Origin: Acetatifactor sp.
Lineage (GTDB): Bacteria > Bacillota > Clostridia > Lachnospirales > Lachnospiraceae
Direction of reading: 5' to 3'
Length of the DNA: 64,000 nt
NCBI GenBank assembly: GCA_045542555.1
Contig: JAZQLH010000029.1
Span: 122-64,121, forward strand
The position numbers and the translations under genes were made by a program. Under the pieces are notes generated by a model. It saw only the letters and a program-made list of their open reading frames with translations. It had not been told where the DNA came from and made no database searches. Each line of letters starts with the position of its first letter. The stretch's first letter is position 1. Positions 2,401 to 20,080 of this stretch are shown piece after piece.

Positions 2401-4525
2401 TTTGCCCGGGAAAATCTTCAAATACTTCAACCTTAAACTTTTCATACATTATTTGCTTAAAATTTTCCTCATACGCAATTATCTTTTGCGCTATAGACAA
2501 TAACTCGTCATAATCCTCATAAGAAGAACTATCCTCCACAGCTTGCAAAAGTTCAATGGCTTCTCTGGCAACGCTTACACTTCTCTCCTTTGTCAGCTTG
2601 TTCTTGGCAAGTAAAACATATGCCTCCTTTTGACCACCCTCTACAGCCTTGCTAAGCCATTTCTCTGCCTTTTCCAAATCCTTATCTGTTCCTATACCCT
2701 CCTGATAAGCACATCCCAATCGAAGCATTGAATATGCATCTTTCGCATTTACACCCTTTTTATACCATCTCATTGCCTCCTCAAGATCTCGCTCTACTCC
2801 TTCACCATTTCGGAAAATATCACCAAGTCTTCCCATTGCTTCCGCATATTCATTTTCTGCGGCCTTCCTAAACCATGCTGCAGCCTTGGCAAAATCCTGC
2901 TCTACTCCTCTACCTTTATAATACACCAAACCCAGTGTATACATCGTCCTTGCATGTCCACCATCCGCGGCCTTCCTAAACCACGCAATTGCCTCTGAAT
3001 AATTTTGCTCTACGCCGCTTCCTTCCCAATACATTGCGCCAAGATTACCCATAGCTGCAGCGTATCCTGCATCTGCTGCCTTCTTAAACCACGATATCGC
3101 CTCTAAAAAATCCCGTTCCACGCCCTTACCGGAATAATACAACAAACCCACACTATGCAATGCCTGCGCATATCCGGCATCTGCTGCTTTCCTATACCAT
3201 TCTGCAGCCTTGACATAATCATTCTCTACTCCTTCGCCGTAATAATATGCCTGACCATAATGATACATTCCCTCAACATGTCCTTCTTCTGCCGCATTTC
3301 GGAACCAAATTGCTGCTTTTTCATAATCTTTCTCTACTCCCTGTCCATACTCATACGCCAGGCCAAGATTATCCATTGCAGATTGATTTCCCTTTTCCAC
3401 TGCCTTTTGAAACCATTTTACTGCTTTGTCGTAATCTTTCTCTACTCCCCGGCCATACTTATACGCCAAACCAAGGTGATTCATTGCCTCAACATATTCG
3501 TTTTGTGCCGCTTTTTCAAACCATTTTGCCGCTTTGCTATAATTTCGCTGTATGCCATTTCCTTCATAATATGCCAGACCCAAACTGTACATTGCTTCAA
3601 CATGACCATTTTCTGCTGCCTTTTTGAACCAATCGGCTGCTACGGCCAAATCCTGATTTACCCCACTTCCATTGGCATATGCTTTTCCAAGAATATTCAT
3701 AGCCGAACCGCTTCCTGCTTCCGCTCCTTTTATATACCAATCCATTGCCTTGGCAAAATCTTGTTTTACTCCCTGACCATTTGCGTACAATTGACCGAGA
3801 TTGTACATCGCATAGCCATCTCCGCCATCTGCTCCCTTCTTAAACCACTGAATTGCTTTTGCATAATTTTGTTCTACACCTTGGCCATTCATATATAACA
3901 AGCCGAGACCAGTCTTTGCAGAAGAGTCTCCGGCATTCGCGCCCTTTTTATACCACTCCGCAGCCATATTCGCATCCTGCTCTATTCCATTTCCCTGTAG
4001 ATAAGCATCACCCAGATAACACATAGACTCCGTATCTCCGGCTTCAGCTGCTTTTTGAAACCAAGCAGTTGCCTTAACAGCATCTGCTTCTATATTTTCC
4101 ATAAAATCCTTCCTACAATATGCAAATGCCATATATCTCATAGAGGGAATATGTCCGGATTCTGCTGATTTCTCCAGCCAATAGAAAGCTTTATTAAGGT
4201 CCTTATCAACAATCTGACCTTTGTAATGCTTCGCATACATATCAACCATGGCATCTTCATGACCAAGCTCTGCTGCCAGACTCATCCACTTGATACCCTC
4301 TTTTAAATCTACTTTCACACCCAGTCCCTGATAAAATGCGATTGCCATATTGAACGTTGCATCCAGATTACCGGCAGTAGCAGCCTTATAAAACCAATTC
4401 ACACTTTCTGCCAAATCCTTCTCAACACCTGAGCCCTCCCGATAGGCAAGTCCCAGTTTATTCATCGCCACCGCATCTCCGAACTTCGCCTTCATTTGCC
4501 ATGTAGATATCTTAATATCAGCCAT
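1..4525 (-). CDS. Sel1-repeat protein fused to three tandem CbxX/SpoVK-type AAA+ ATPase modules (N-terminus complete, C-terminus beyond window start; at least 1508 aa)
   Basis: Hand translation of the minus strand from ATG 4525-4523 (RBS GGAGGAG 4534-4540) stays open to nt 1. With no stop in the window it is absent from the ORF track. About 17 Sel1 repeats (A..W..KAA..G...A...LG..Y..G.GVE.D) span nt ~4500-2650. Walker A GNPGTGKTT codons start at 2251, 1426 and 571, all in frame with the ATG. Walker B is LFIDEAY in modules 1 and 3 and LFIVEAY in module 2. Confidence 0.85.
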   Translation of the reverse strand, partial: MADIKISTWQMKAKFGDAVAMNKLGLAYREGSGVEKDLAESVNWFYKAATAGNLDATFNMAIAFYQGLGVKVDLKEGIKWMSLAAELGHEDAMVDMYAKHYKGQIVDKDLNKAFYWLEKSAESGHIPSMRYMAFAYCRKDFMENIEADAVKATAWFQKAAEAGDTESMCYLGDAYLQGNGIEQDANMAAEWYKKGANAGDSSAKTGLGLLYMNGQGVEQNYAKAIQWFKKGADGGDGYAMYNLGQLYANGQGVKQDFAKAMDWYIKGAEAGSGSAMNILGKAYANGSGVNQDLAVAADWFKKAAENGHVEAMYSLGLAYYEGNGIQRNYSKAAKWFEKAAQNEYVEAMNHLGLAYKYGRGVEKDYDKAVKWFQKAVEKGNQSAMDNLGLAYEYGQGVEKDYEKAAIWFRNAAEEGHVEGMYHYGQAYYYGEGVENDYVKAAEWYRKAADAGYAQALHSVGLLYYSGKGVERDFLEAISWFKKAADAGYAAAMGNLGAMYWEGSGVEQNYSEAIAWFRKAADGGHARTMYTLGLVYYKGRGVEQDFAKAAAWFRKAAENEYAEAMGRLGDIFRNGEGVERDLEEAMRWYKKGVNAKDAYSMLRLGCAYQEGIGTDKDLEKAEKWLSKAVEGGQKEAYVLLAKNKLTKERSVSVAREAIELLQAVEDSSSYEDYDELLSIAQKIIAYEENFKQIMYEKFKVEVFEDFPGQKSAMDELDRMIGLQKVKEEVHNLKSFVEVQQKLKEMGKETQKMSLHMVFTGNPGTGKTTVARIIARILHEIGIIPTEKLIECDRTSLVAKYSGQTASQTLQVVESALGGVLFIDEAYTLSSAGDNFGQEAIDTLLKAMEDNRDNLIVIVAGYTNEMRDFIDSNPGLQSRFNMFLEFEDYTVPEMVQMFKLTCDSKGYVVADDAWQAVINEMTKINRNKSQTFANGRDVRNFFEKVLKKQNVRISRLDINSLSEMDFMTISKEDIVEEEEIKQSSQNSALAALDRMIGLDSVKAEVYNLKKTIIAQKKLRDMGRNVESASMHMVFTGNPGTGKTTVARIIAKVFHEIGIIPTDKLVECDRATLVGQHVGHTAPKTQAVIDSALGGVLFIVEAYALCPKDSSRDFGQEAINTLLKAMEDNRDNLIVIVAGYTKEMKDFIDTNPGLQSRFSLFMDFEDYTVAEMVQIFKYTCDSRGYVVSDDSWETVIKEMTKMINSKNENFANGRDVRNFFEKVLKKQNVRISRLGINGLTEMDFMTIMKEDIADETEEENEDESGVEQTSQKSALEELDGMIGLDSVKIEVLNLKKKIIAQKKLREMGRNVENASMHMVFTGNPGTGKTTVARIIAQVFHEIGVIPTDKLVECDRASLVGQYIGETAPKTQAVIDSALGGVLFIDEAYTLSPQDSPRDFGREAINTILKAMEDNRDNLIVIVAGYKKEMQDFLASNPGLESRFKYFIDFPDYIPDEMFEIFRSYCVKEQYEISEEAVPYLKEHFARMDAEKGEKFGNGRDVRNYYERVVQR

Positions 4526-4604: not shown

Positions 4605-5405
4605 CTATTTATTATTCTTTTTTCTAATCTGCTCCATGATGTCAGCATTAAGTGTTACATCACTCTTTTCTGCCACAACACTACCCGTATTACTGCTTTT
4701 TGCAATTACATTAGGCCTTTTTATCTTAATGCCACCCATGAAAAACAAGACAATGCCAACACCATGTATTACAATGTCAAGTACAATAGCAATTACAACA
4801 AATGTGAAATTATCTTCCGTTGGCGGAAAGGAAAAAGTAAGTATTGTACAAAAAGAAATAAATGTATTTATCAAAGACGGAACAATACCTACTACAAGCC
4901 CTAAAATTCTACAATCCGGCGGAATCCATGTGTCCGACGAACGAAATCCCAAGTACACACCCACAAAATGAAATGCCAGTACTAATACAAAAAAGAGTAC
5001 TCTGGGCATTGGGGACGGCCACTGCATTTCTATAAATGATAAAATTGTTGCAGACGTCATAGATGCAACACAACCGTAACTTGCCGCTAAATTCCATATG
5101 GTTAACTGACTGGAACATATCATTAACAGGAAAATGACGAAGAAGATAAAAATATCTATCTCAACCATAAAAAGCGTATCTGCATCCAACTTGGCCAAAA
5201 GCGTTCTTTCTATCGCAAATACGGACATGGAATCGGCAGAGCCTCCTGTGGCGAAATACCAAACCAGATAGGATATTCCTACCAACATTGTCAACACCAT
5301 TTCTCTGGTATGATTTTGAGCAATATAAGTAATTAACTCAATAAGGACCTTAATAGGAAACGTAAAAAGTTTAAATATTAAAAAGACATCCCATCTTACC
5401 CACAC
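4605..5405 (-). CDS. Polytopic membrane protein, unknown family
   Basis: 266-aa track ORF (GTG start) with multiple hydrophobic segments. Same strand as the Sel1/AAA+ gene, and its stop lies 79 nt upstream of that gene's ATG. Confidence 0.6.
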   Translation of the reverse strand: MWVRWDVFLIFKLFTFPIKVLIELITYIAQNHTREMVLTMLVGISYLVWYFATGGSADSMSVFAIERTLLAKLDADTLFMVEIDIFIFFVIFLLMICSSQLTIWNLAASYGCVASMTSATILSFIEMQWPSPMPRVLFFVLVLAFHFVGVYLGFRSSDTWIPPDCRILGLVVGIVPSLINTFISFCTILTFSFPPTEDNFTFVVIAIVLDIVIHGVGIVLFFMGGIKIKRPNVIAKSSNTGSVVAEKSDVTLNADIMEQIRKKNNK

Positions 5406-10537: not shown

Positions 10538-10682
10538 TCTTTTTTCTCCTTTTAAGTTAATTCTGCAAAACTATACTACTTCTGCACTTTTCAATTGGAA
10601 TTCCTATTTATTATACATTATCAACACTTCATGGTCAATTAGCACCACTGGCTAAGCCGGTGGTGCTAATTGGTTTCTAAGC

Positions 10683-10720
10683 AAAAAAAAGAGAAATACG
10701 GCATTTCTGCTGTATTTCTC
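10683..10720 (-). terminator. Rho-independent terminator, probably the original terminator of the tRNA-Tyr/tRNA-Leu operon displaced by the insertion
   Basis: On the minus strand, stem GAGAAATAC/GTATTTCTC is followed by TTTTTTTT. It lies just outside the left att repeat. Confidence 0.6.
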
Positions 10721-10729
10721 CTACTTCAA

Positions 10730-10754
10730 TTTACTGCTGGTGGCCGGACTTGAA
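10730..10754. repeat. att core repeat, distal copy (duplicated tRNA-Leu 3' end)
   Basis: Identical 25-mer to 15648-15672. The flanking bases differ (10729 A vs 15647 T; 10755 A vs 15673 C). Confidence 0.9.
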
Positions 10755-10813
10755 AACAAAGTCCGATGGCCGGAACATTGATAGAAAGGAGTTTCCGGCT
10801 CTCTCGCTTGGGT

Positions 10814-10832
10814 GTGTAAACGGAGTGTAAAC
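10814..10832. promoter_or_regulatory. Putative integrase arm-type sites: two direct GTGTAAAC octamers spaced 11 bp (left end)
   Basis: GTGTAAAC at 10814-10821 and 10825-10832. The same pair with the same 11-bp spacing sits at the other end (15591-15598 and 15602-15609). Confidence 0.55.
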
Positions 10833-10837
10833 ATCTT

Positions 10838-11113
10838 TTATAACAAGCTATCGTTGAATAGTCTTTCAATATCTCCGGCCTCAAATTTCATATCCTGAAA
10901 CTGTCTAGCCTGCGTCATGGTAACTAAGATATTTGAAACTACCCTGTGCCATGCCTTGTAACGTTCAAGCGATTCTATAATTCTCCCTAAGTCTTGCTTT
11001 GAAATCATAATCATTTCTCCACCTGAAACCGCAACAACTTCACCTTCAACCGCTAATTCTTTGTAAGATAGTCCCAATTCCGTCAATAGTGTTTCTAATT
11101 CTTTTTCTTTCAT
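10838..11113 (-). CDS. Hypothetical protein (islet cargo)
   Basis: 91-aa track ORF with no recognisable motif. AT-rich. Confidence 0.45.
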   Translation of the reverse strand: MKEKELETLLTELGLSYKELAVEGEVVAVSGGEMIMISKQDLGRIIESLERYKAWHRVVSNILVTMTQARQFQDMKFEAGDIERLFNDSLL

Positions 11114-11376
11114 ACTGCAACCTCCACATCTAATTATTTAATTATCTATATTATAATCTTTCCAACTACTATAAGTCCATTTGTAACCTTCACAATTATA
11201 ACTCTTTAATAGAAATTTGGAGGCATTAGTACAACTACTATTATACGTGTATTAAAATTAAAGACTCCTTTCTCTAACCTGCAAAACTTATTTTTTTATT
11301 GACCTTTATGCAATTTGCACAATAAAAGGCATTACCCTATATGGAGTAAAAGGCTTTGTGTTAATGTCCTTCTATT

Positions 11377-11787
11377 CTATCTCCATTGATTCCATTTATT
11401 TACTCGTTTTACTACGTCTTCAGTATTGATAAAACTAACAGGATATACAGCCTCATTTAATGCTTCGTATGTTCCATCTTCTTGTACTTGCTGCAGCACA
11501 ATTCTCAGTTTATTTCGCAACATTGCGCCAAAGGAATTTTGTGCATCTACTTCTGCATATAGATATATTCTTCCATAATTATCTTTATCTTGAATTTCTA
11601 TTGTTTCAAAGTTTACAGTAGAAGGTGCTTTAAGGTGCTTTTTGATACAATCCTTACATGCTTCGATAATTAACTCGTCCATAGTTTTAGGATTTTCATT
11701 TTGAACACTTTTTTCAACTTTTGCACCACATTGAAAACAGAATAATGCATTATCTGATATTTGCGTACCACACTTACTACAAAACAT
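11377..11787 (-). CDS. Zinc-ribbon domain protein (islet cargo)
   Basis: CSKCG..N..FCFQCG is a double CxxC zinc ribbon at the N-terminus. I prefer ATG 11787 (RBS AAAGGAG) to the track start at 11835. A TATAAT-like box lies upstream. Confidence 0.6.
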   Translation of the reverse strand: MFCSKCGTQISDNALFCFQCGAKVEKSVQNENPKTMDELIIEACKDCIKKHLKAPSTVNFETIEIQDKDNYGRIYLYAEVDAQNSFGAMLRNKLRIVLQQVQEDGTYEALNEAVYPVSFINTEDVVKRVNKWNQWR

Positions 11788-11912
11788 ACTCCACACTCCT
11801 TTTATCTTTTTAAATATTATAACATATTTTACCACAATTAGAAAATAATTAGCATAATATTAAAACAACTTTAGAAACAAAAATTCTAAAAAAGATGTAA
11901 ATAAATATATGT

Positions 11913-13445
11913 CTACATTTTCTTAAACAGTTTCCAAGTATATGTCAGATATTTTTCTTCCAATTCATGACCATCAATAAATTCAATATTTACAAGATGA
12001 AATCTATCGTCTTCATCCAAACAATGCACAAGCCTCGTACCTGGATGAATTGCATAGTACAAATTATCGAATTGCGAATGACAATTGGGGCATAGTACGA
12101 CCATATTACCAATTGTGTCATCTCCCTTGTGTATCTTGTTATATGGTCGAATATGATGTGCTTCGGAATAAGCTTCAAATCTTGTTTTCATCAATCTTGT
12201 TCCACACAATTGACAACAATTATTATATGCCAGTTTTAAATTTTCTGCTAAATAAGTACTTCTGACCAAACGTGACAATTCGATATCTTTACTTTTTTGA
12301 TTGTTTTGACTCATTGAATCATATAATACCACATCATCCATACCGATATCATTCTCCTCAGAATATCTATTACAAACAGTTACCCATTCTGCACCTTCTT
12401 CATTTGCATCATCTTCATCTTCAAGGTCTATATTACTTTCGTAGTAATCAACAGCTTTATCATAACTTTCAACTACGTCTGCAATACTAAGAAGATTTGC
12501 AATGCTATTGGGATTATACACTATTCCGTAGTCTGATGTATATTCCTTAGTAGCATTCTTCAATTGCTCATTTGAAAAACCGACCATTGGCAATATGTCT
12601 GCAACACCTCTGCCTTTTGTAGCAACCAAATAATGATAAATTCTACTATAGTTTAACTGTTGGCTACCTACTGTAAGAAATCCATTACTTTTTAACTTAT
12701 AGTTAGCAAATAGATAATTCTGATAACTATTATCAAATGCTTCGTCCTGTGGTGCTCTAAAAAATAGTTCGTCGGAAAGCATATCAATCTTAAAGTAATC
12801 CACATATGCAATAATATACTTTATTATTTCTTCGCCAAGATGAATCCATTTAAGAAGACCGTCATCCGGCTTGTCATCCATTCTAACATTTCTTATTCTT
12901 TGCTCATTTATTAGCACATCATTACATTTTAATTGGCGTATATGTCTCTGTTCAAATATACAAAAATAACAAATTGCACTCATACATTGGGTTATTATTC
13001 TTTCTTCCGTATTCCGAAACTCTCCATCTTTCCCAAGTATAATATTTTGTATATCAGAAAGTGAAATTACGGATTTGTTATTCTTTTCTTTGTTCCCAAT
13101 ATATACAAATTCAAAATCAAATCTCTTATCTAATTTACCCTGCTTAATAAGAAAATCCTTAAGTTTTCTCAATGCAGAACGTATTACTAAACTTCTTCTA
13201 TAATTCTGTTGAAAATCTATTATTCTATCTTCAGAAAAAATACTTTCATAATCCGCATCATCCACCTGATTACGAACTTCATTAAGCAAATATTCTTTGA
13301 CAATATCTACATATAAATTCTTTGTAGATTCTTTCTTTTCTGCTACAAATTCAGTAAATTCATTGACAATCGTGCTTATTTCTTGATATGTAATAGCCCC
13401 CACAAATTTACCCTCCTTTATTTGCTCTACAGTATTATAAATCAT
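11913..13445 (-). CDS. HNH endonuclease-domain fusion protein; the N-terminal ~330 aa possibly form a degenerate tyrosine-recombinase-like DNA-binding module
   Basis: C-terminal HNH motif: CQLCG..(14)..AHHIRP..(12)..GNMVVLCPNCH. N-terminal segments resemble an integrase SAM-like/core-binding region (YRRSLVIRSALRKLKDFLIKQGKL) and a decayed catalytic fold (FEQRHIRQL, LNYSRIYHYLV). Confidence 0.7.
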   Translation of the reverse strand: MIYNTVEQIKEGKFVGAITYQEISTIVNEFTEFVAEKKESTKNLYVDIVKEYLLNEVRNQVDDADYESIFSEDRIIDFQQNYRRSLVIRSALRKLKDFLIKQGKLDKRFDFEFVYIGNKEKNNKSVISLSDIQNIILGKDGEFRNTEERIITQCMSAICYFCIFEQRHIRQLKCNDVLINEQRIRNVRMDDKPDDGLLKWIHLGEEIIKYIIAYVDYFKIDMLSDELFFRAPQDEAFDNSYQNYLFANYKLKSNGFLTVGSQQLNYSRIYHYLVATKGRGVADILPMVGFSNEQLKNATKEYTSDYGIVYNPNSIANLLSIADVVESYDKAVDYYESNIDLEDEDDANEEGAEWVTVCNRYSEENDIGMDDVVLYDSMSQNNQKSKDIELSRLVRSTYLAENLKLAYNNCCQLCGTRLMKTRFEAYSEAHHIRPYNKIHKGDDTIGNMVVLCPNCHSQFDNLYYAIHPGTRLVHCLDEDDRFHLVNIEFIDGHELEEKYLTYTWKLFKKM

Positions 13446-13586
13446 TGTATCACATCACTTACATTTGTAAAATGAATTTATATTTCCATTCACTTTATAA
13501 AAAGTTTATAATTTTCCCTCTAAATAGATATTCATTTCCCACCGATACCAATATTACACAACAAAATAAAAATAGTTCCTTAAACG

Positions 13587-13634
13587 GCAAGACAATTTAA
13601 GAAGCATTCTGCTTCTGATATGTCTTGCTTTTTT
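13587..13634 (+). terminator. Terminator-like hairpin plus T-run in the islet's divergent control region
   Basis: GCAAGACA (13587-13594) pairs with TGTCTTGC (13621-13628). There is an inner GAAGC/GCTTC stem, and TTTTTT follows. Confidence 0.4.
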
Positions 13635-13823
13635 ATATGCAAAAGTAACCTTGTCATCTTATTACATTACTTTTGATTAATTACTACTTCTGTCTCGGTA
13701 ATTTTTCTAAAAGGACAAAAAAGACACGTTTTCATCTGTTTTGGAAGCAAAAAACAAAGTCAACAAATTAATTTATATTAATTACCGTCAAAATCGGTAA
13801 CTTTCAAGGAGGTATTAATTACT

Positions 13824-14246
13824 ATGGATAATTACGAAAGCAGACCTTTATATTCCATGCCATTTCCCAAACCGCTTAAGGAAATGACGGACGAGGAATT
13901 AAACAATCTTCTTACCGGGAAATTCAATTACAATGTACTAATCCCGGCGTTAATTGAAGCTCACTTGCGGAAAGATGAGCAAATCGCCGTACTTACCAAG
14001 CGAATTGCCTATCTTGAACAAAAGGCTCTCCAAAAGCCCGGACGTCCTCGCAGGGAGTTTTGGATTGACGGCCGGGAACTGACAGACGAGTACCTAATGG
14101 AACTGATTGACTACGGCTATTATGATAGCATCAGCAAACTAGAAAAGGAATTACACGCCGGTAAAAATCAGCTCCGCAATCGCTACAACAAAGCAAAAGA
14201 GAAGCAACTTCTAGAAAGGAAGGTAAAAAGTTATGGGAATAGTTAG
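13824..14246 (+). CDS. Small islet protein upstream of and overlapping the integrase gene (possible excisionase or regulator)
   Basis: 140 aa with RBS AAGGAGG. Contains a basic KPGRPRREF segment. It overlaps the integrase start by 14 nt. Confidence 0.5.
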   Translation: MDNYESRPLYSMPFPKPLKEMTDEELNNLLTGKFNYNVLIPALIEAHLRKDEQIAVLTKRIAYLEQKALQKPGRPRREFWIDGRELTDEYLMELIDYGYYDSISKLEKELHAGKNQLRNRYNKAKEKQLLERKVKSYGNS

Positions 14247-15579
14247 ACCAATCGTGCAGGAGTGGTGCGTACCCCAACAGTACACCTCTTCGCCGGAAGT
14301 AATCAAAAACTGCTTGCAGGAAGTCTTAGAAGATAGTATTCTTAAGCCACAAGCGAGCGAGCCGGATAATGAAGATATGAGAAAAGAAAAAAGAGAACGC
14401 ATTATCAAGGCACACATGGAGAAATATACAACTAAATATTATGAGTCAGACAACAGATGGCATTCTTTCCTGCCGGATGAAACCCTTCCACGAAAAATGC
14501 GACCCATTGCCAAGCGAAAGTTTGAAGACTTAGAAAAGGCCATCCTTGCCTATTATGAGGAGCAGGAGCAGATAAAGAACCGCAAGAAAATGACGCTCCG
14601 CAGACTTTACCCGGAATGGTTTGCCTACAAATGGCAAGACACCAACAATTCCAACTACATGAAGCATATCGAAGGCGAATGGAAACGGCATTATGTGGAT
14701 GACCCCATTATTGACCGCCCTGTTGTAGAATTTACTACTCTAGAGCTCAAAAACTGGGCAAGAAGTAAGATTGTAGCCGGACACATGACCAAGAAGCAGT
14801 ATTACAACATGGCAATCATCATTCGCCAGAGCTTGGACTACCTTGTGGAGCTTGGGGAACTGTCTACCAATCCTTATGCCAACTTCAAGATTAATCCCTC
14901 ACTATTTACGCCTGCCAAGCACAAAGAGGCAGAAGAAAGGGTATTTATTGAAGATGAGGAAAAGCAATTGAAGCAGATTGCTCTAAAGGATTTTGCCGAA
15001 CACCCGGAGCATATCGGTGCGGCAGCGGTGCTTATCAATCTATCCTTGGGACTTCGTGTATCAGAACTTGTTGGTCTTAAGTGGAAAGACCTAAAAGACG
15101 GTTATCTGCATATCCGACGCATGGAGCAGAAGCAATGGGAACGACATGCAGACGGCACTTGGAAATCCTATCTGGCAGTTGTGGAGCATACCAAATCCAC
15201 CGCCGGCGTCAGAACCCTTTATGTGGTTTCCTCTTCTCTTGCCTTATTTGAGCAAGTACGGGAAGCCAACAGACAAAGAGGTTATGGTTGCGAGCCGGAA
15301 GATTATATTTTCCAACATGCCGGAAATCGGATTACAGCTAATTCCATTGACAGCTACTATGAGCGGTACTGTAAACAACTTGGAATTGCCAAGAAGGGGA
15401 ATCACGGTGCAAGAAGAACGGCATTAACTAAGATTGCCGACAATCCCAACATTAACCTAAAGGACGCCATGGAATGGGCAGGACACCGGGATGTAAAGAC
15501 TTTTATAAATCACTACTGCTATTCCCGATACTCTGACGAACAGAAAAGAAATGAACTGGAGAAAACCCTAAATCTCTAG
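14233..15579 (+). CDS. int: Tyrosine-type site-specific integrase
   Basis: Catalytic signature present: GLRVSELVGLKW (Arg), HGARRT (His-x-x-Arg), GHRDVKTFINHYCY (His..Tyr). Adjacent to the att core and tRNA-Leu. Confidence 0.9.
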   Translation: MGIVRPIVQEWCVPQQYTSSPEVIKNCLQEVLEDSILKPQASEPDNEDMRKEKRERIIKAHMEKYTTKYYESDNRWHSFLPDETLPRKMRPIAKRKFEDLEKAILAYYEEQEQIKNRKKMTLRRLYPEWFAYKWQDTNNSNYMKHIEGEWKRHYVDDPIIDRPVVEFTTLELKNWARSKIVAGHMTKKQYYNMAIIIRQSLDYLVELGELSTNPYANFKINPSLFTPAKHKEAEERVFIEDEEKQLKQIALKDFAEHPEHIGAAAVLINLSLGLRVSELVGLKWKDLKDGYLHIRRMEQKQWERHADGTWKSYLAVVEHTKSTAGVRTLYVVSSSLALFEQVREANRQRGYGCEPEDYIFQHAGNRITANSIDSYYERYCKQLGIAKKGNHGARRTALTKIADNPNINLKDAMEWAGHRDVKTFINHYCYSRYSDEQKRNELEKTLNL

Positions 15580-15590
15580 TATTTATCAGC

Positions 15591-15622
15591 GTGTAAACAT
15601 GGTGTAAACAAATTTACACACA
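15591..15622. promoter_or_regulatory. Putative integrase arm-type sites (right end): two direct GTGTAAAC octamers spaced 11 bp plus one inverted GTGTGTAAA copy
   Basis: GTGTAAAC at 15591-15598 and 15602-15609. TTTACACAC (reverse complement GTGTGTAAA) at 15613-15621. Confidence 0.55.
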
Positions 15623-15647
15623 AAAAATCCAGCATTTCTGCTGGATT

Positions 15648-15672
15648 TTTACTGCTGGTGGCCGGACTTGAA
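15648..15672. repeat. att core repeat, tRNA-proximal copy
   Basis: Identical 25-mer to 10730-10754. Positions 15653-15672 are the 3' end of tRNA-Leu. Confidence 0.9.
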
Positions 15673-15736
15673 CCGGCACGGGGTTGCCCCCGAGGGATTT
15701 TAAGTCCCTTGCGTCTGCCTATTCCGCCACACCAGC
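15653..15736 (-). tRNA. tRNA-Leu (anticodon UAA), class II with long variable arm, no encoded CCA
   Basis: Hand fold: acceptor GCTGGTG/CACCAGC, anticodon stem AGGGA/TCCCT with loop CTTAAAA, variable arm CGGGGGCAACCCCGT, T-arm GCCGG-TTCAAGT-CCGGC, discriminator A. Confidence 0.9.
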
Positions 15737-15778
15737 GGACGCTATGGTCTCGGTCCGATGCTTGACATCAGGACCGCG

Positions 15779-15860
15779 TGGATGGAGGTGGATTCGAACC
15801 ACCGAAGCAATTTGCAGCAGATTTACAGTCTGTCCCCTTTGGCCACTCGGGAATCCATCC
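15779..15860 (-). tRNA. tRNA-Tyr (anticodon GUA), class II, no encoded CCA
   Basis: Hand fold: acceptor GGATGGA/TCCATCC, anticodon loop CTGTAAA, variable arm TGCAAATTGC, T-arm GGTGG-TTCGAAT-CCACC. Confidence 0.85.
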
Positions 15861-15902
15861 ATGTAAGGTAACCGCTTTTATACAATTACCTGACAATGTG
15901 AA

Positions 15903-17800: not shown

Positions 17801-19903
17801 TCACTCTTCTGCGTATTTCAATATGGTGCCGGATGTGGGGGGCAGCTCAATGGTAATCTTACCCGTATAAATATCATACTCCTGCCCATTCAGAATATAT
17901 CCGTCACAATTACTCTGCATAATTACCTTCATCTTGCCACTCTTGGGCGTGCCCAGCTCCCAGACAGAAAACTCTCTGGTAACGGGATGGTTGTTGTTGT
18001 TAATTGCAATAATACACTGACTTTCACGGTTAAAACGTCCGTATACCAACAAATTGTAATCCGAATCCACCGGTTTGATGGAACCGGTTTTTAATTCTAT
18101 ATTTTCTTTACGCAGACGAATGATGTCCTTGTGGAACTGAATCAACTCCTGATCCTCTCTGCCCCAAGGGTATGTTCTTCGGCTGTCCGGGTCGGTAAAA
18201 CCGCATAATCCAGCCTCATCGCCATAGTAAATGGTAGGTGCGCCAATCCAAGTCATCTGCATGATGACAGCCTCTCTGAATACAGCCTTGTTCACGTCCT
18301 GATTGGCTGCCTCCGCACCCATGGTATTGATACGTCCAACCTTATGGTTCGTACGGGTCAAGAAACGGGAATGATCATGATTGGAAAGCTCGTTCATGGC
18401 CACCTGCCAGCTGGGCATGGCGAAGCTGCCGGTATGGTGGCGCATTGCGCCCCAGAAGCTGTCTGCATTGCCCAATAAATCCTCTCGGAAATCGTCGCTG
18501 TGCTTCTCCATGCCGGTCAAAAACCAGGTCACGGGCTCCATGAAAGCATCGTAATTCATAACGGTGTCCCACTCATCGCCCTGCAGCCAGTCTCTGGTAT
18601 TGCCGTAATGCTCTGCCAAAACGATGGCATCGGGATTGGCTTCCTTCACGGCCTGACGAAAATCATGCCAAAATTGATGGTTAAAGCTTTGGCTGTGGCC
18701 CAAATCTGCTGCCACATCCAGTCTCCAGCCGTCCGCATTGTATGGGGGAGACACCCATTTACGCCCAATTTCCAAAACATAATTGTAAAGCTCCTTGGAG
18801 GCCTCATAATTGAGCTTGGGCAACGTATCATGTCCCCACCAACCGTCGTAGTTGTTATTGTAGGGCCATGCGTTCTCATTTCTGAAATCAAAATATCTGC
18901 GATAGGGGCTGTCACCGCTGACGTAAGCACCCTTCTCATAACCTTTGGCATCCTCATAGATGCGTTCTTTGTCCATCCACTTATTAAAGGAACCACAATG
19001 ATTGAACACGCCGTCCAGAATCACACGCATGCCTCTCTTGTGGGCTTCCTCCACCACCTTGATGAACAGCTGATTGCTGGCCTCCAGATTCTCCTTGTTG
19101 GTCACACGGTTAATATATTTGGAGGCAAATCGATTCTCCTTCTGTCCGTAAGGCAGAAGTTCACCCTTTTCATCCACAATCTTACCAAAATGAGGGTCAA
19201 TATAATCATAGTCCTGGATATCATACTTATGATTGGAGGGCGATACAAACAACGGATTAAAATAAATAACCTCAACGCCCAAATCCTGCAGGTAATCCAT
19301 CTTATCCAGTACGCCCTGCAAATCGCCGCCATAGAAATTGCGCACATCCATCTGGGCAGGATAGGAATACCAATCCTCCACACGATGTACAGGCTCATTG
19401 ATATAGCAGTACTCATCCGTCAAAACATCATTGGAAGGGTCTCCGTTACAGAAACGATCCACATAAATCTGATACATTACCGCACCCTTGGCCCAATCCG
19501 GCGTCTTAAAACCGGGAATAATCACAAAATCATAATACTCGTTGACGTCCTGTACCAGACCCCGCACGTCAAAATAACCCACAATATGCCCTGTACGAAG
19601 CTCGAAATGATAGGTCAGCTTCTCATTATCCAACTCTACTTCATGTGCATAGAAATCAAAATCCTCCGTGCTCTCTTCCTTCATCATAGGGTACCTCTGT
19701 CCCCGATAAATCAGATACACGCTGTCCACATTATTCTTGGCCGTACGGATTCGAATCGTCACAGGCTCATATGCCGCCGGCTCTGCCGGAGTCACATACT
19801 CCGCAGTCGTATCTGTGTAAATCGCCCTACGATTAAACACGGGCCTCATCCCTGCAATGTACGCCTGATTATATTCCGTCTGCCACAAATTCTCAAAACC
19901 CAT
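17801..19903 (-). CDS. Glycoside hydrolase family 13 (neopullulanase/cyclomaltodextrinase-like alpha-glycosidase)
   Basis: GH13 conserved regions DGVFNHCG, GWRLDVAADL, AEHYGN, NHDHSRF. I prefer ATG 19903 (MGFENLW) to the track start at 19984. Confidence 0.85.
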   Translation of the reverse strand: MGFENLWQTEYNQAYIAGMRPVFNRRAIYTDTTAEYVTPAEPAAYEPVTIRIRTAKNNVDSVYLIYRGQRYPMMKEESTEDFDFYAHEVELDNEKLTYHFELRTGHIVGYFDVRGLVQDVNEYYDFVIIPGFKTPDWAKGAVMYQIYVDRFCNGDPSNDVLTDEYCYINEPVHRVEDWYSYPAQMDVRNFYGGDLQGVLDKMDYLQDLGVEVIYFNPLFVSPSNHKYDIQDYDYIDPHFGKIVDEKGELLPYGQKENRFASKYINRVTNKENLEASNQLFIKVVEEAHKRGMRVILDGVFNHCGSFNKWMDKERIYEDAKGYEKGAYVSGDSPYRRYFDFRNENAWPYNNNYDGWWGHDTLPKLNYEASKELYNYVLEIGRKWVSPPYNADGWRLDVAADLGHSQSFNHQFWHDFRQAVKEANPDAIVLAEHYGNTRDWLQGDEWDTVMNYDAFMEPVTWFLTGMEKHSDDFREDLLGNADSFWGAMRHHTGSFAMPSWQVAMNELSNHDHSRFLTRTNHKVGRINTMGAEAANQDVNKAVFREAVIMQMTWIGAPTIYYGDEAGLCGFTDPDSRRTYPWGREDQELIQFHKDIIRLRKENIELKTGSIKPVDSDYNLLVYGRFNRESQCIIAINNNNHPVTREFSVWELGTPKSGKMKVIMQSNCDGYILNGQEYDIYTGKITIELPPTSGTILKYAEE

Positions 19904-20080
19904 GGTTTGCTTCCCTTTCTGACATGTACTTTCAAAGTACACAACCATTACCCCTATTTTACCTAAAAACCCCACCCTTTTCAATACTTTAGTCTCGATT
20001 CTCTTCTTGGAGAGATGTGTATATCTGATTGGGGCACTTTACAGATACCCCCAAGAAGACAATCGAGACATTTGGGCAGT

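Follow-up and report, generated by a model that had tools for sequence, protein, structure and literature searches.

At positions 10730-15672 of the 64,000 nt stretch of Acetatifactor sp. DNA analysed here (the window) lies an interval of 4,943 bp, bounded by two copies of a 25 bp direct repeat and abutting a tRNA-Leu(UAA) gene. In brief, five open reading frames (ORFs) lie between the repeats: three read leftward and encode proteins of 91, 152 and 510 amino acids, and two read rightward and encode a 140 amino acid protein, ORF140, and a tyrosine integrase of 448 amino acids (Table 1). We suggest that the interval is very probably a site-specific integrative genomic islet, and a member of a family of approximately 5-7 kb islets in Lachnospiraceae. 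An islet had been proposed here in an original prediction, which named the two repeat copies, the tRNA end supplied by the right copy, the complete integrase, the small ORF overlapping it and three leftward cargo genes; all of these were confirmed.

Table 1. Features of the islet and of its target site in the window (aa, amino acids; int, integrase gene; L011, an Acetatifactor metagenome-assembled genome, MAG).
Feature	Position	Strand	Remarks
Outer terminator hairpin	10683-10729	-	immediately outside attL; fold and U-run on the tRNA strand
attL core	10730-10754	.	left copy of the 25 bp repeat; duplicates the tRNA-Leu 3' end
Left (P') arm	10755-10846	.	92 bp; conserved, neighbouring cargo unrelated
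Cargo ORF, 91 aa	10838-11113	-	no family
Cargo ORF, 152 aa	11377-11835	-	PF13240 1.9e-9; phrog_13160 1.8e-11
Main cargo ORF, 510 aa	11913-13445	-	predicted HNH nuclease; gene callers start at GTG 13403, giving 496 aa
Leader of the integration module	13589-13823	.	non-coding, ~235 bp, conserved
ORF140, 140 aa	13824-14246	+	14 nt overlap with int; conserved orphan
Tyrosine integrase, 448 aa	14233-15579	+	PF00589 3.4e-14; phrog_1 1.8e-31
Right (P) arm	15580-15647	.	98.9% identical to L011
attR core	15648-15672	.	right copy of the repeat; 15653-15672 is the last 20 nt of the functional tRNA
tRNA-Leu(UAA)	15653-15736	-	target gene, intact after insertion; ARAGORN, Rfam

The 25-mer TTTACTGCTGGTGGCCGGACTTGAA is found exactly twice in the 64 kb, where 0 copies are expected from 100 shuffles, and no third copy was found across the 64 kb with up to three mismatches allowed. 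ARAGORN and Rfam (RF00005, 58.8 bits) map the tRNA-Leu gene such that the right copy comprises its last 20 nt and 5 nt further, the block of identity stopping within the T-loop. Past the repeat the two ends share 81% identity over 32 nt, with a 13 nt shift and into the two terminators, and nothing longer, indicating that the repeat is not part of a long duplication. The terminator predicted earlier at the left flank folds on the tRNA strand (-17.8 kcal/mol, z -4.7) and is followed by a U-run. The islet carries a hairpin of its own after tRNA-Leu, at approximately 15622-15650 in the right arm (-15.7 kcal/mol, z -5.3), a two-way terminator that now ends transcription of the tRNA gene. The outer hairpin is 81-90% similar to the right-end terminators of the window islet and of a related islet, L003. 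It presumably represents either the original tRNA-Leu terminator (attL's B arm) or what an older element left behind of its right end; the likeness would accordingly mean either that the islets copied the native tRNA terminator, or that a last remnant of such an older element survives to the left of attL. The same terminator likeness is seen in L003 itself, between 5068-5119 and 11417-11466.

The integrase has the complete catalytic set R-K-H-R-H-Y; residues R275, K321, H391, R394, H418 and Y428 do not vary across 33 aligned relatives, and the gene ends 69 bp from the core. ORF140 has 387 homologues, zero of them with a Pfam domain. An exhaustive profile search of 1.84 billion representatives yielded just 85 clusters; all of them are short, and no fusion was informative. 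The AlphaFold2 model of ORF140 (predicted local distance difference test, pLDDT, 80) is a long coiled coil with a small helical domain, and no usable match was found in Pfam, PHROGs, NCBIfam, PADLOC, a PDB sequence profile or a Foldseek search of the model. Based on its conserved, translationally coupled position, we presume that ORF140 is a recombination directionality (excision) factor or a regulator.

The leader upstream of ORF140 is 78-79% identical to those of L011, L023 and L032, with long invariant blocks, and similarity to L011 and L023 starts at approximately 13589. The cargo bay ends at a hairpin (13600-13616), and conservation is strong in a stretch upstream of ORF140 that includes a ribosome-binding site. 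The left arm, with an identity of 98% (98.3%) to L011, 96% to L023 and 92% to L010, contains a local hairpin, GCCGGAA...TTCCGGC (10769-10799), a stretch at 10794-10810 that is complementary to int and, at 10814-10832, two GTGTAAAC repeats with 11 bp spacing. In the right arm two direct GTGTAAAC repeats (15591-15609) are followed by an inverted TTTACAC (15613-15619). Four of the five copies of GTGTAAAC in the 64 kb thus form two pairs, with 11 bp spacing, just within each end. All nine family members examined have kept the GTGTAAA(C) pairs, including L005, which has a different core and sits at tRNA-Leu(AAG). In these nine, two copies lie approximately 60 bp inside attL, and two direct and usually one inverted copy lie 40-110 bp inside attR. 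Going by this pattern, the paired GTGTAAAC repeats are most likely arm-type binding sites of the integrase.

Relatives of the integrase with 63-81% identity were found in MAGs of Lachnospiraceae and in gut metagenomes, and at least nine further islets share the backbone of the window islet. These are located at tRNA-Leu 3' ends, have their own 21-40 bp repeats and carry unrelated cargo. Integrase relatives with 66-81% identity are without exception neighbours of a tRNA-Leu 3' end and have such repeats. The small overlapping ORF lies upstream of the integrase in every locus long enough to judge. Between the integrase gene and the tRNA-Leu(UAA) 3' end (tRNA-Leu(AAG) in L005) are approximately 100-160 bp, and a 21-40 bp copy of the tRNA end is found 5.4-6.9 kb leftward. 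The conserved backbone has two parts, the 92 bp left arm and the region from approximately 13589 through the right core, and everything between them varies by member. Complete islets range from 5,367 to 6,903 bp: 5,367 bp in L026, 5,972 bp in L037, 5,990 bp in L029, 6,029 bp in L005, 6,268 bp in L001, 6,370 bp in L003, 6,888 bp in L030 and about 6,900 bp in L011. At 4,943 bp the window islet is the smallest complete member. It had been called unusually small, which is true relative to a family that itself measures approximately 5-7 kb.

Two members differ from this plan. The islet in L034 (150-3069) is only 2.9 kb, with one other ORF and an integrase frame split into 314 and 152 amino acids, due to either a frameshift or an assembly error. 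In L001 a different integrase of 406 amino acids (2452-3672) ends approximately 160 bp before the attL core of the islet, which suggests two unrelated elements in tandem at one tRNA-Leu site; the left end of this second element was not found within the contig.

The strongest evidence for movement comes from the comparison of nucleotide identities between the window and L011. The integrase gene is 95.8% identical, the attR arm 98.9%, the attL arm 98.3% and ORF140 89%, whereas ftsH is 83.4%, an amylase gene 84.3% and the adjacent membrane-protein gene 70.7% identical. The cargo has no detectable similarity. Since the integrase and arms are 96-99% identical against approximately 83% for ftsH (71-84% for the flanking host genes), and the cargo is unrelated, the comparison points to recent horizontal transfer and cargo replacement. 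The atypical composition of the cargo, with a GC content of 0.31 against 0.42 for the window, also fits horizontal movement.

More distant relatives of the integrase, with 29-44% identity, always map close to a tRNA gene, approximately 100 bp from its 3' end. Their targets are Pro, Gly, Glu, Thr, Lys or other Leu tRNA genes, and the elements with both ends visible measure 6.2-9.7 kb. Integrases with approximately 34% identity lie beside tRNA-Glu(CTC) in L053-L057, L063, L065 and L103-L107, with no repeat within 10 kb, and some of these relatives are on IMG/VR contigs of approximately 150 kb. Distant integrase relatives on IMG/VR contigs have identities of 34% or less. A single-protein search of IMG/VR found none of the close integrase family, and a profile search found relatives of at most 36% identity only. 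From the IMG/VR contigs and the repeat-less tRNA-Glu relatives it follows that larger elements use this integrase superfamily, which may also include much larger elements or prophages. Alternatively, the window islet could have decayed from a larger prophage or conjugative element and lost its mobility, with the integration module and a few genes left. The frameshifted integrase of L034 would fit such decay, as would the integrase-less remnants at the same site in L010, L030, L035 and the extra segments of L011. However, at least nine independent members share the same compact order of arm, cargo, leader, ORF140, int and arm, with intact integrases and perfect repeats, and none of them contains fragments of phage or conjugation genes. 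Their recent movement, seen in the backbone identity, also argues against a remnant, and we consider this explanation very improbable.

Several observations weigh against the reading as an integrative islet. Recombination between resident elements, and not transfer of a whole element, could in principle account for the high backbone identity with L011. The 615 amino acid flanking protein finds three related species, two labelled Acetatifactor and one Lachnospiraceae, that share the tRNA-Tyr/tRNA-Leu pair and right-flank synteny with the window; in all three the tRNA-Leu site is occupied, each time by different content. Exact-protein look-ups with the integrase and three flanking genes gave no other strain of the species on record, and no empty tRNA-Leu site was found in these look-ups or in the three related species. 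A search of IMG/VR for the attP circle junction (core plus P'-arm pattern) gave no match. The left flank has no conserved synteny with the relatives, so that the empty site is not reconstructable by comparison; as this flank is also GC-poor, the left boundary is defined by the repeat and the conserved arm only. The GC content is 0.31 in the cargo bay, 0.447 in int, 0.43-0.45 in the two rightward genes, 0.463 in the ftsH region and 0.418 (0.42) in the window, close to the earlier spot counts, and the contrast is clear on the right side only since the left flank itself is at 0.37. The role proposed for ORF140 has no homology support, and the defence role of the HNH protein described below is deduced from domains and neighbourhoods only. 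In view of these points, the islet is putatively active at present.

The cargo of the window islet was predicted to be of an accessory or defence type, and the unrelated cargo of its relatives, largely defence genes, agrees with this. L037 and L029 carry an MT-A70 methylase with a BglII-like endonuclease and a ParA-like ATPase with SIR2_2, L030 an 813 amino acid N6_Mtase/HSDR_N protein and a GmrSD_N protein, L001 AIPR, L023 GmrSD_N and SocA_Panacea, and L005 a BglII-like endonuclease, while L003 and L026 carry large P-loop proteins of unknown family. As judged from such domains, the cargo of the family usually consists of defence (anti-phage) genes. In L011 a UPF0236 protein (14380-15861; PF06782, 5e-62) lies inside the islet beside the integration module. 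We take this protein to be an ISLre2-type transposase, which would explain part of the larger size of the L011 islet.

The 510 amino acid protein is the main cargo. Its C-terminus contains Pfam HNH and HNH_2 domains (PF13391, PF01844), the HNH domain spanning approximately residues 380-470, and the motif residues C397, C400, H416, H417, N433, C438, C441 and H442 are invariant; the matches to mREase_IV and ZorE in PADLOC are weak. The AlphaFold2 model (pLDDT 82) was made from a 42-sequence alignment. In Foldseek, residues 1-320 or so of the model match the tyrosine recombinases XerA (3e-7), IntI, Tn1549 Int, Cre and lambda Int, and the C-terminus matches TagI and McrA; the sequence profile likewise gave TagI (1e-17) and XerA (7.6e-7). 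The catalytic Arg-I and HxxR positions of the recombinase-fold domain are not conserved, and the fold is therefore predicted to be dead. No modified-base reader domain (SRA, SBD, wH etc.) was matched in the N-terminal 320 residues. According to the model, the protein is thus a catalytically dead tyrosine-recombinase fold joined to an HNH nuclease of the TagI/McrA type. It resembles TagI, EcoKMcrA and ScoMcrA in its C-terminal HNH_2 domain, in the TagI profile match and in the invariant Cys4 and His/Asn residues, and differs in that the reader domain is replaced by the approximately 320-residue recombinase fold lacking Arg-I and HxxR.

We found approximately 60 full-length homologues of this protein, 30-90% identical, in Firmicutes including Peribacillus and Bacillus genomes. 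They are lone genes in shifting defence and mobile contexts: beside HEPN and NOV_C, beside Fic, in a three-integrase element and with a resolvase as neighbour. Because these contexts vary, and because DNA similarity to the homologues in other loci ends at the ORF limits, we regard the HNH gene as a single-gene module. Action together with neighbours was set aside, as the homologues are solitary, and a HEPN gene, which adjoins a homologue twice, is absent here. On the basis of its domain content and gene neighbourhoods, the protein is a candidate single-gene defence nuclease.

The 152 amino acid protein has an N-terminal zinc ribbon and an uncharacterised domain known from phage families; translation probably starts at MFCSKCG, giving 136 amino acids. 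The 91 amino acid ORF has no match in Pfam, PHROGs, NCBIfam or PADLOC, and no relative in any fetched locus.

Several related loci hold more than one pair of cores. There are four core copies in L011 and three each in L030 and L035. L010 has no full islet and instead a single 1.96 kb segment without integrase (12128-14090), bounded by the tRNA-Leu end and a 26 bp repeat and encoding AbiLi (4e-29) and a 168 amino acid partner. In L011 a 1.06 kb integrase-less segment (19012-20063, record orientation) between two tRNA-Leu core copies has a CptN gene (19502-19975, 4e-78 to PDB 4rmo) with a repeat of 45 nt x 2.1 upstream (19363-19458), and by sequence it is a complete type III toxin-antitoxin of the CptIN type. 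Another such segment, of 1.24 kb, encodes a PDDEXK_2 protein. These core arrays with integrase-less segments show repeated use of the tRNA-Leu site.

From the arrays one might see the tRNA-Leu locus as an integron-like platform, in which one integrase shuffles integrase-less defence cassettes bounded by cores. The three to four core copies and the single-module segments (CptIN, AbiL and PDDEXK_2), some of which keep the P' arm, would fit. However, the L010 segment looks like an internal deletion of a full islet, because it retains the left arm and the final 59 bp of the right arm of a window-type islet; similarity to the right arm of the window ends at 15614, and int and the GTGTAAAC pair are gone. 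The arms of the other segments are degenerate, an identical cassette was not seen in two positions, and decay and accretion as in cis-mobilisable elements (CIMEs) fit the arrays. The cores are also tRNA-derived and not attC, and the integrase is weakly phrog_1/XerC-like with no IntI-specific match. An integron-like platform is therefore unlikely in our view, and the islet is no integron.

The islet agrees with other tRNA islets in that the repeat is the tRNA 3' end and a complete tyrosine recombinase lies beside the att site. In line with the original prediction, searches of the five ORFs with Pfam, PHROGs, NCBIfam and PADLOC detected no family linked to replication or conjugation, and no relaxase, capsid or terminase. 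The islet is not an ICE (integrative and conjugative element), as no type IV secretion system, coupling protein or relaxase was found (Pfam, PHROGs, NCBIfam), nor a canonical integrative and mobilisable element (IME), as there is no relaxase and an oriT was not recognisable from sequence with the tools used. With its intact integrase it is no CIME either, a class that fits the integrase-less segments of L010, L011, L030 and L035. It is no prophage, the PHROGs matches being the integrase, HNH families and families of unknown function only, and no tycheposon, as it has no helicase, primase or polymerase gene; the integrase was set apart from those of tycheposons by description only.

ICEs, IMEs and CIMEs that target tRNA genes have direct repeats of 8-60 bp that duplicate the gene end, and newcomers enter at the resident attR (Guedon et al. 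2017, PMC5704250). CIMEs have kept the att sites and lost recombination and transfer genes, and have been tied to decay and accretion in streptococci (PMC5704250). The streptococcal elements share with ours the integrase at a tRNA 3' end, the gene-end repeats and the att-flanked remnants without integrase. In contrast to the ICEs and IMEs of Streptococcus, the window islet has no relaxase, coupling protein or recognisable oriT, its orphan 140 amino acid partner is not a known Xis, its host is one of the Lachnospiraceae and cargo typically comprises one or two defence modules. The tycheposons of Prochlorococcus are 10-20 kb long, usually with a 2-4 kb replication module (Hackl et al., bioRxiv 10.1101/2020.12.28.424599); they are cyanobacterial and carry mostly nutrient-acquisition genes (bioRxiv 10.1101/2020.12.28.424599). 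They too have an inward tyrosine recombinase at one end, integrate into tRNA genes leaving partial tRNAs, and build variable islands by repeated insertions with exchangeable modular cargo. They differ from the window islet, which lacks a replication gene, and in integrase lineage by description. By analogy, the window islet would work like an integration module of the lambda or ICE type, and the locus would behave like streptococcal accretion and tycheposon islands. It is set apart by extreme compactness, the orphan partner protein, consistent defence-type cargo and the complementarity between arm and integrase gene described below.

We suggest the following mechanism, based on the architecture and the paradigm of lambda and ICE integrases. 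The integrase would recombine attP with the tRNA gene, the attP core consisting of the terminal 20 nt of tRNA-Leu(UAA), which reach from its T-loop to its end, and 5 nt more. The islet would insert downstream of the crossover, its own copy rebuilding the tRNA 3' end and bringing a replacement terminator, and ORF140 would act as excision or regulatory partner of the integrase. The cargo bay between the 92 bp left arm and the hairpin at 13600 differs between members and usually holds anti-phage genes; in the window it contains the predicted nuclease, in which the dead recombinase-like part would serve as DNA-binding domain, and the two small genes. Since the islet brings no genes for its own transfer or replication, spread must depend on outside means: it may be transduced, taken up by transformation, or moved by a helper conjugative element through an oriT that escaped recognition.

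Minimalist satellites (phage-inducible chromosomal minimalist islands, PICMIs) and relaxase-free mobilisable genomic islands (MGIs) consist of an integrase and few genes and spread with the aid of a helper. The window islet resembles both in size, in its integrase and few genes and in a presumed dependence on a helper for spread, and differs in that their hallmarks (alpA, fis, primase; an oriT mimic of a known helper) were not detected in the five ORFs. The islet could be a phage satellite of the phage-inducible chromosomal island (PICI) or PICMI type, induced by a helper phage and packaged in its capsids: a size of approximately 5-7 kb, an integrase in first place, cargo of the defence type and missing transfer genes are all reminiscent of minimalist satellites, and the 152 amino acid cargo protein matches uncharacterised phage families. 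This is improbable, however, as no repressor/AlpA, Stl-type regulator, primase-replicase, terS, capsid morphogenesis gene or fis was found in the window or in any relative scanned, and the close integrase family is absent from IMG/VR. The cargo also differs completely between members, so that there is no conserved interference or packaging module.

Another route would be that of a non-canonical mobilisable element, an IME of the MGI type without relaxase, that has only an oriT mimic and rides on a helper ICE or plasmid. Relaxase-free IMEs of 1.7-2 kb are known in Firmicutes according to a review (PMC5704250). The approximately 235 bp leader, conserved beyond the need of a promoter, could hold such a site, and horizontal spread is evident although the islet has no means of its own. 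However, no oriT or nic motif was identified and the helper is not known, with an oriT being unrecognisable by the tools used, and promoter and operator functions explain conservation of the leader equally well. We give this hypothesis on transfer a modest chance; it concerns the route only and is compatible with a site-specific integrative islet.

The repeat search of the window also revealed an unexpected match: read as reverse complement, int codons 40-45 (14350-14366) agree at 16 of 17 nt with a left-arm segment, TCCGGCTCTCTCGCTTG, at 10794-10810. The complementarity, spanning 17-21 nt, was followed in the window, L001, L003, L005, L011, L023-L037, L039, L050, L072 and L086. It lies at the same two positions in 13 of 13 family elements checked, is perfect over 21 nt in L001, and comes in three sequence types in which arm and int change together. 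In the aligned pairs 96.5% of the cells pair, compared to 30-44% when one side is slid, and changes on both sides compensate each other in 6 of 16 pairs. The covariation score is 0.349 versus 0.143 in shuffles, with none of 500 shuffles reaching 0.349. Covariation counts were used in place of RNA duplex energies, which are dominated by long interior loops and thus uninformative. Departures from pairing count as G-U seven times if the plus strand is the RNA and three times for the minus strand, which slightly favours pairing with the int mRNA.

In the distant families at tRNA-Pro, Gly, Thr and Leu(CAG) the sequences are unrelated, and the best match between arm and int again lies 34-58 nt from the core, or 94-109 nt from it in one case. 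The int side of the match lies at the homologous place in the integrase gene; in the short integrases of the Thr family this is codons 4-9, within the translation initiation region. Four of six distant families beat at least 299 of 300 shuffles. A protein-binding site was rejected as the cause, since the sequences are unrelated between families yet still complementary. As a protein site need not change together with a variable coding segment, selection for nucleic-acid pairing between arm and int is the best explanation of these patterns.

In phage lambda, the sib element beyond att can act in cis on int mRNA solely from unintegrated DNA, and integration moves it to the opposite end of the element. 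The sib hairpin is local, lies at the message's 3' end and is cleaved by RNase III; this retroregulation over int, attP and sib was reportedly worked out by Guarneros, Echols and co-workers in the early 1980s. The islets resemble lambda in the terminator between int and att and in a P' arm, in the same layout, with 17-21 nt complementary to int mRNA. They differ in that the pairing would be long-range (approximately 1.3 kb), would involve the 5' part of the int coding region, and is predicted from sequence. The order int, terminator, attP core and P' arm would lie on a single transcript path solely in the excised circle. In the circle or on incoming DNA, transcription through int, the leaky terminator and attP would append the arm segment to the int mRNA, where it would pair with codons 40-45 or so (the translation initiation region in short integrases) and alter Int synthesis. 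Integration would physically separate the arm segment from its int target and uncouple the pairing. We tentatively propose, as a possibility with the odds still against it, that the complementarity is a state sensor of the lambda sib type, conserved across a superfamily of tRNA-targeting islets in gut Firmicutes. In a weaker version, the arm may encode a trans-acting antisense RNA against int.

Outside the islet, a tRNA-Tyr gene (15778-15860) neighbours tRNA-Leu(UAA). These two tRNAs were the only RNA families found with Rfam at a permissive threshold, apart from sub-threshold noise, and a consensus promoter and terminator scan performed no better than on shuffles. Between a lipoprotein gene and the outer tRNA terminator lies an 18 nt inverted repeat (10636-10672; 94% complementary, 1 nt loop) with a sub-threshold match to Rfam psRNA14 (30 bits; gathering score, 60) that probably reflects noise.

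The islet itself is a textbook, ordinary kind of element, belonging to a previously undescribed family. In the literature searched we found no paper on this family, no description of a fusion between a recombinase fold and HNH, and none of an arm-integrase complementarity of this kind; such absence is no proof of novelty. The family shows gut Lachnospiraceae, mostly uncultured, exchanging single anti-phage genes. A backbone of approximately 2.3 kb (arm, leader, ORF140, integrase, arm), nearly identical between species, brings a different defence payload with each member, always into the same tRNA gene. For Lachnospiraceae this backbone amounts to a natural integration vector, compact and with a cargo bay of defined limits, and the bay is a promising hunting ground for new defence genes, the putative dead-recombinase and HNH nuclease being one candidate. 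If the complementarity does regulate Int, it would represent a general mechanism by which an element senses whether it is integrated or free, something that to our knowledge has been worked out in detail for lambda only.

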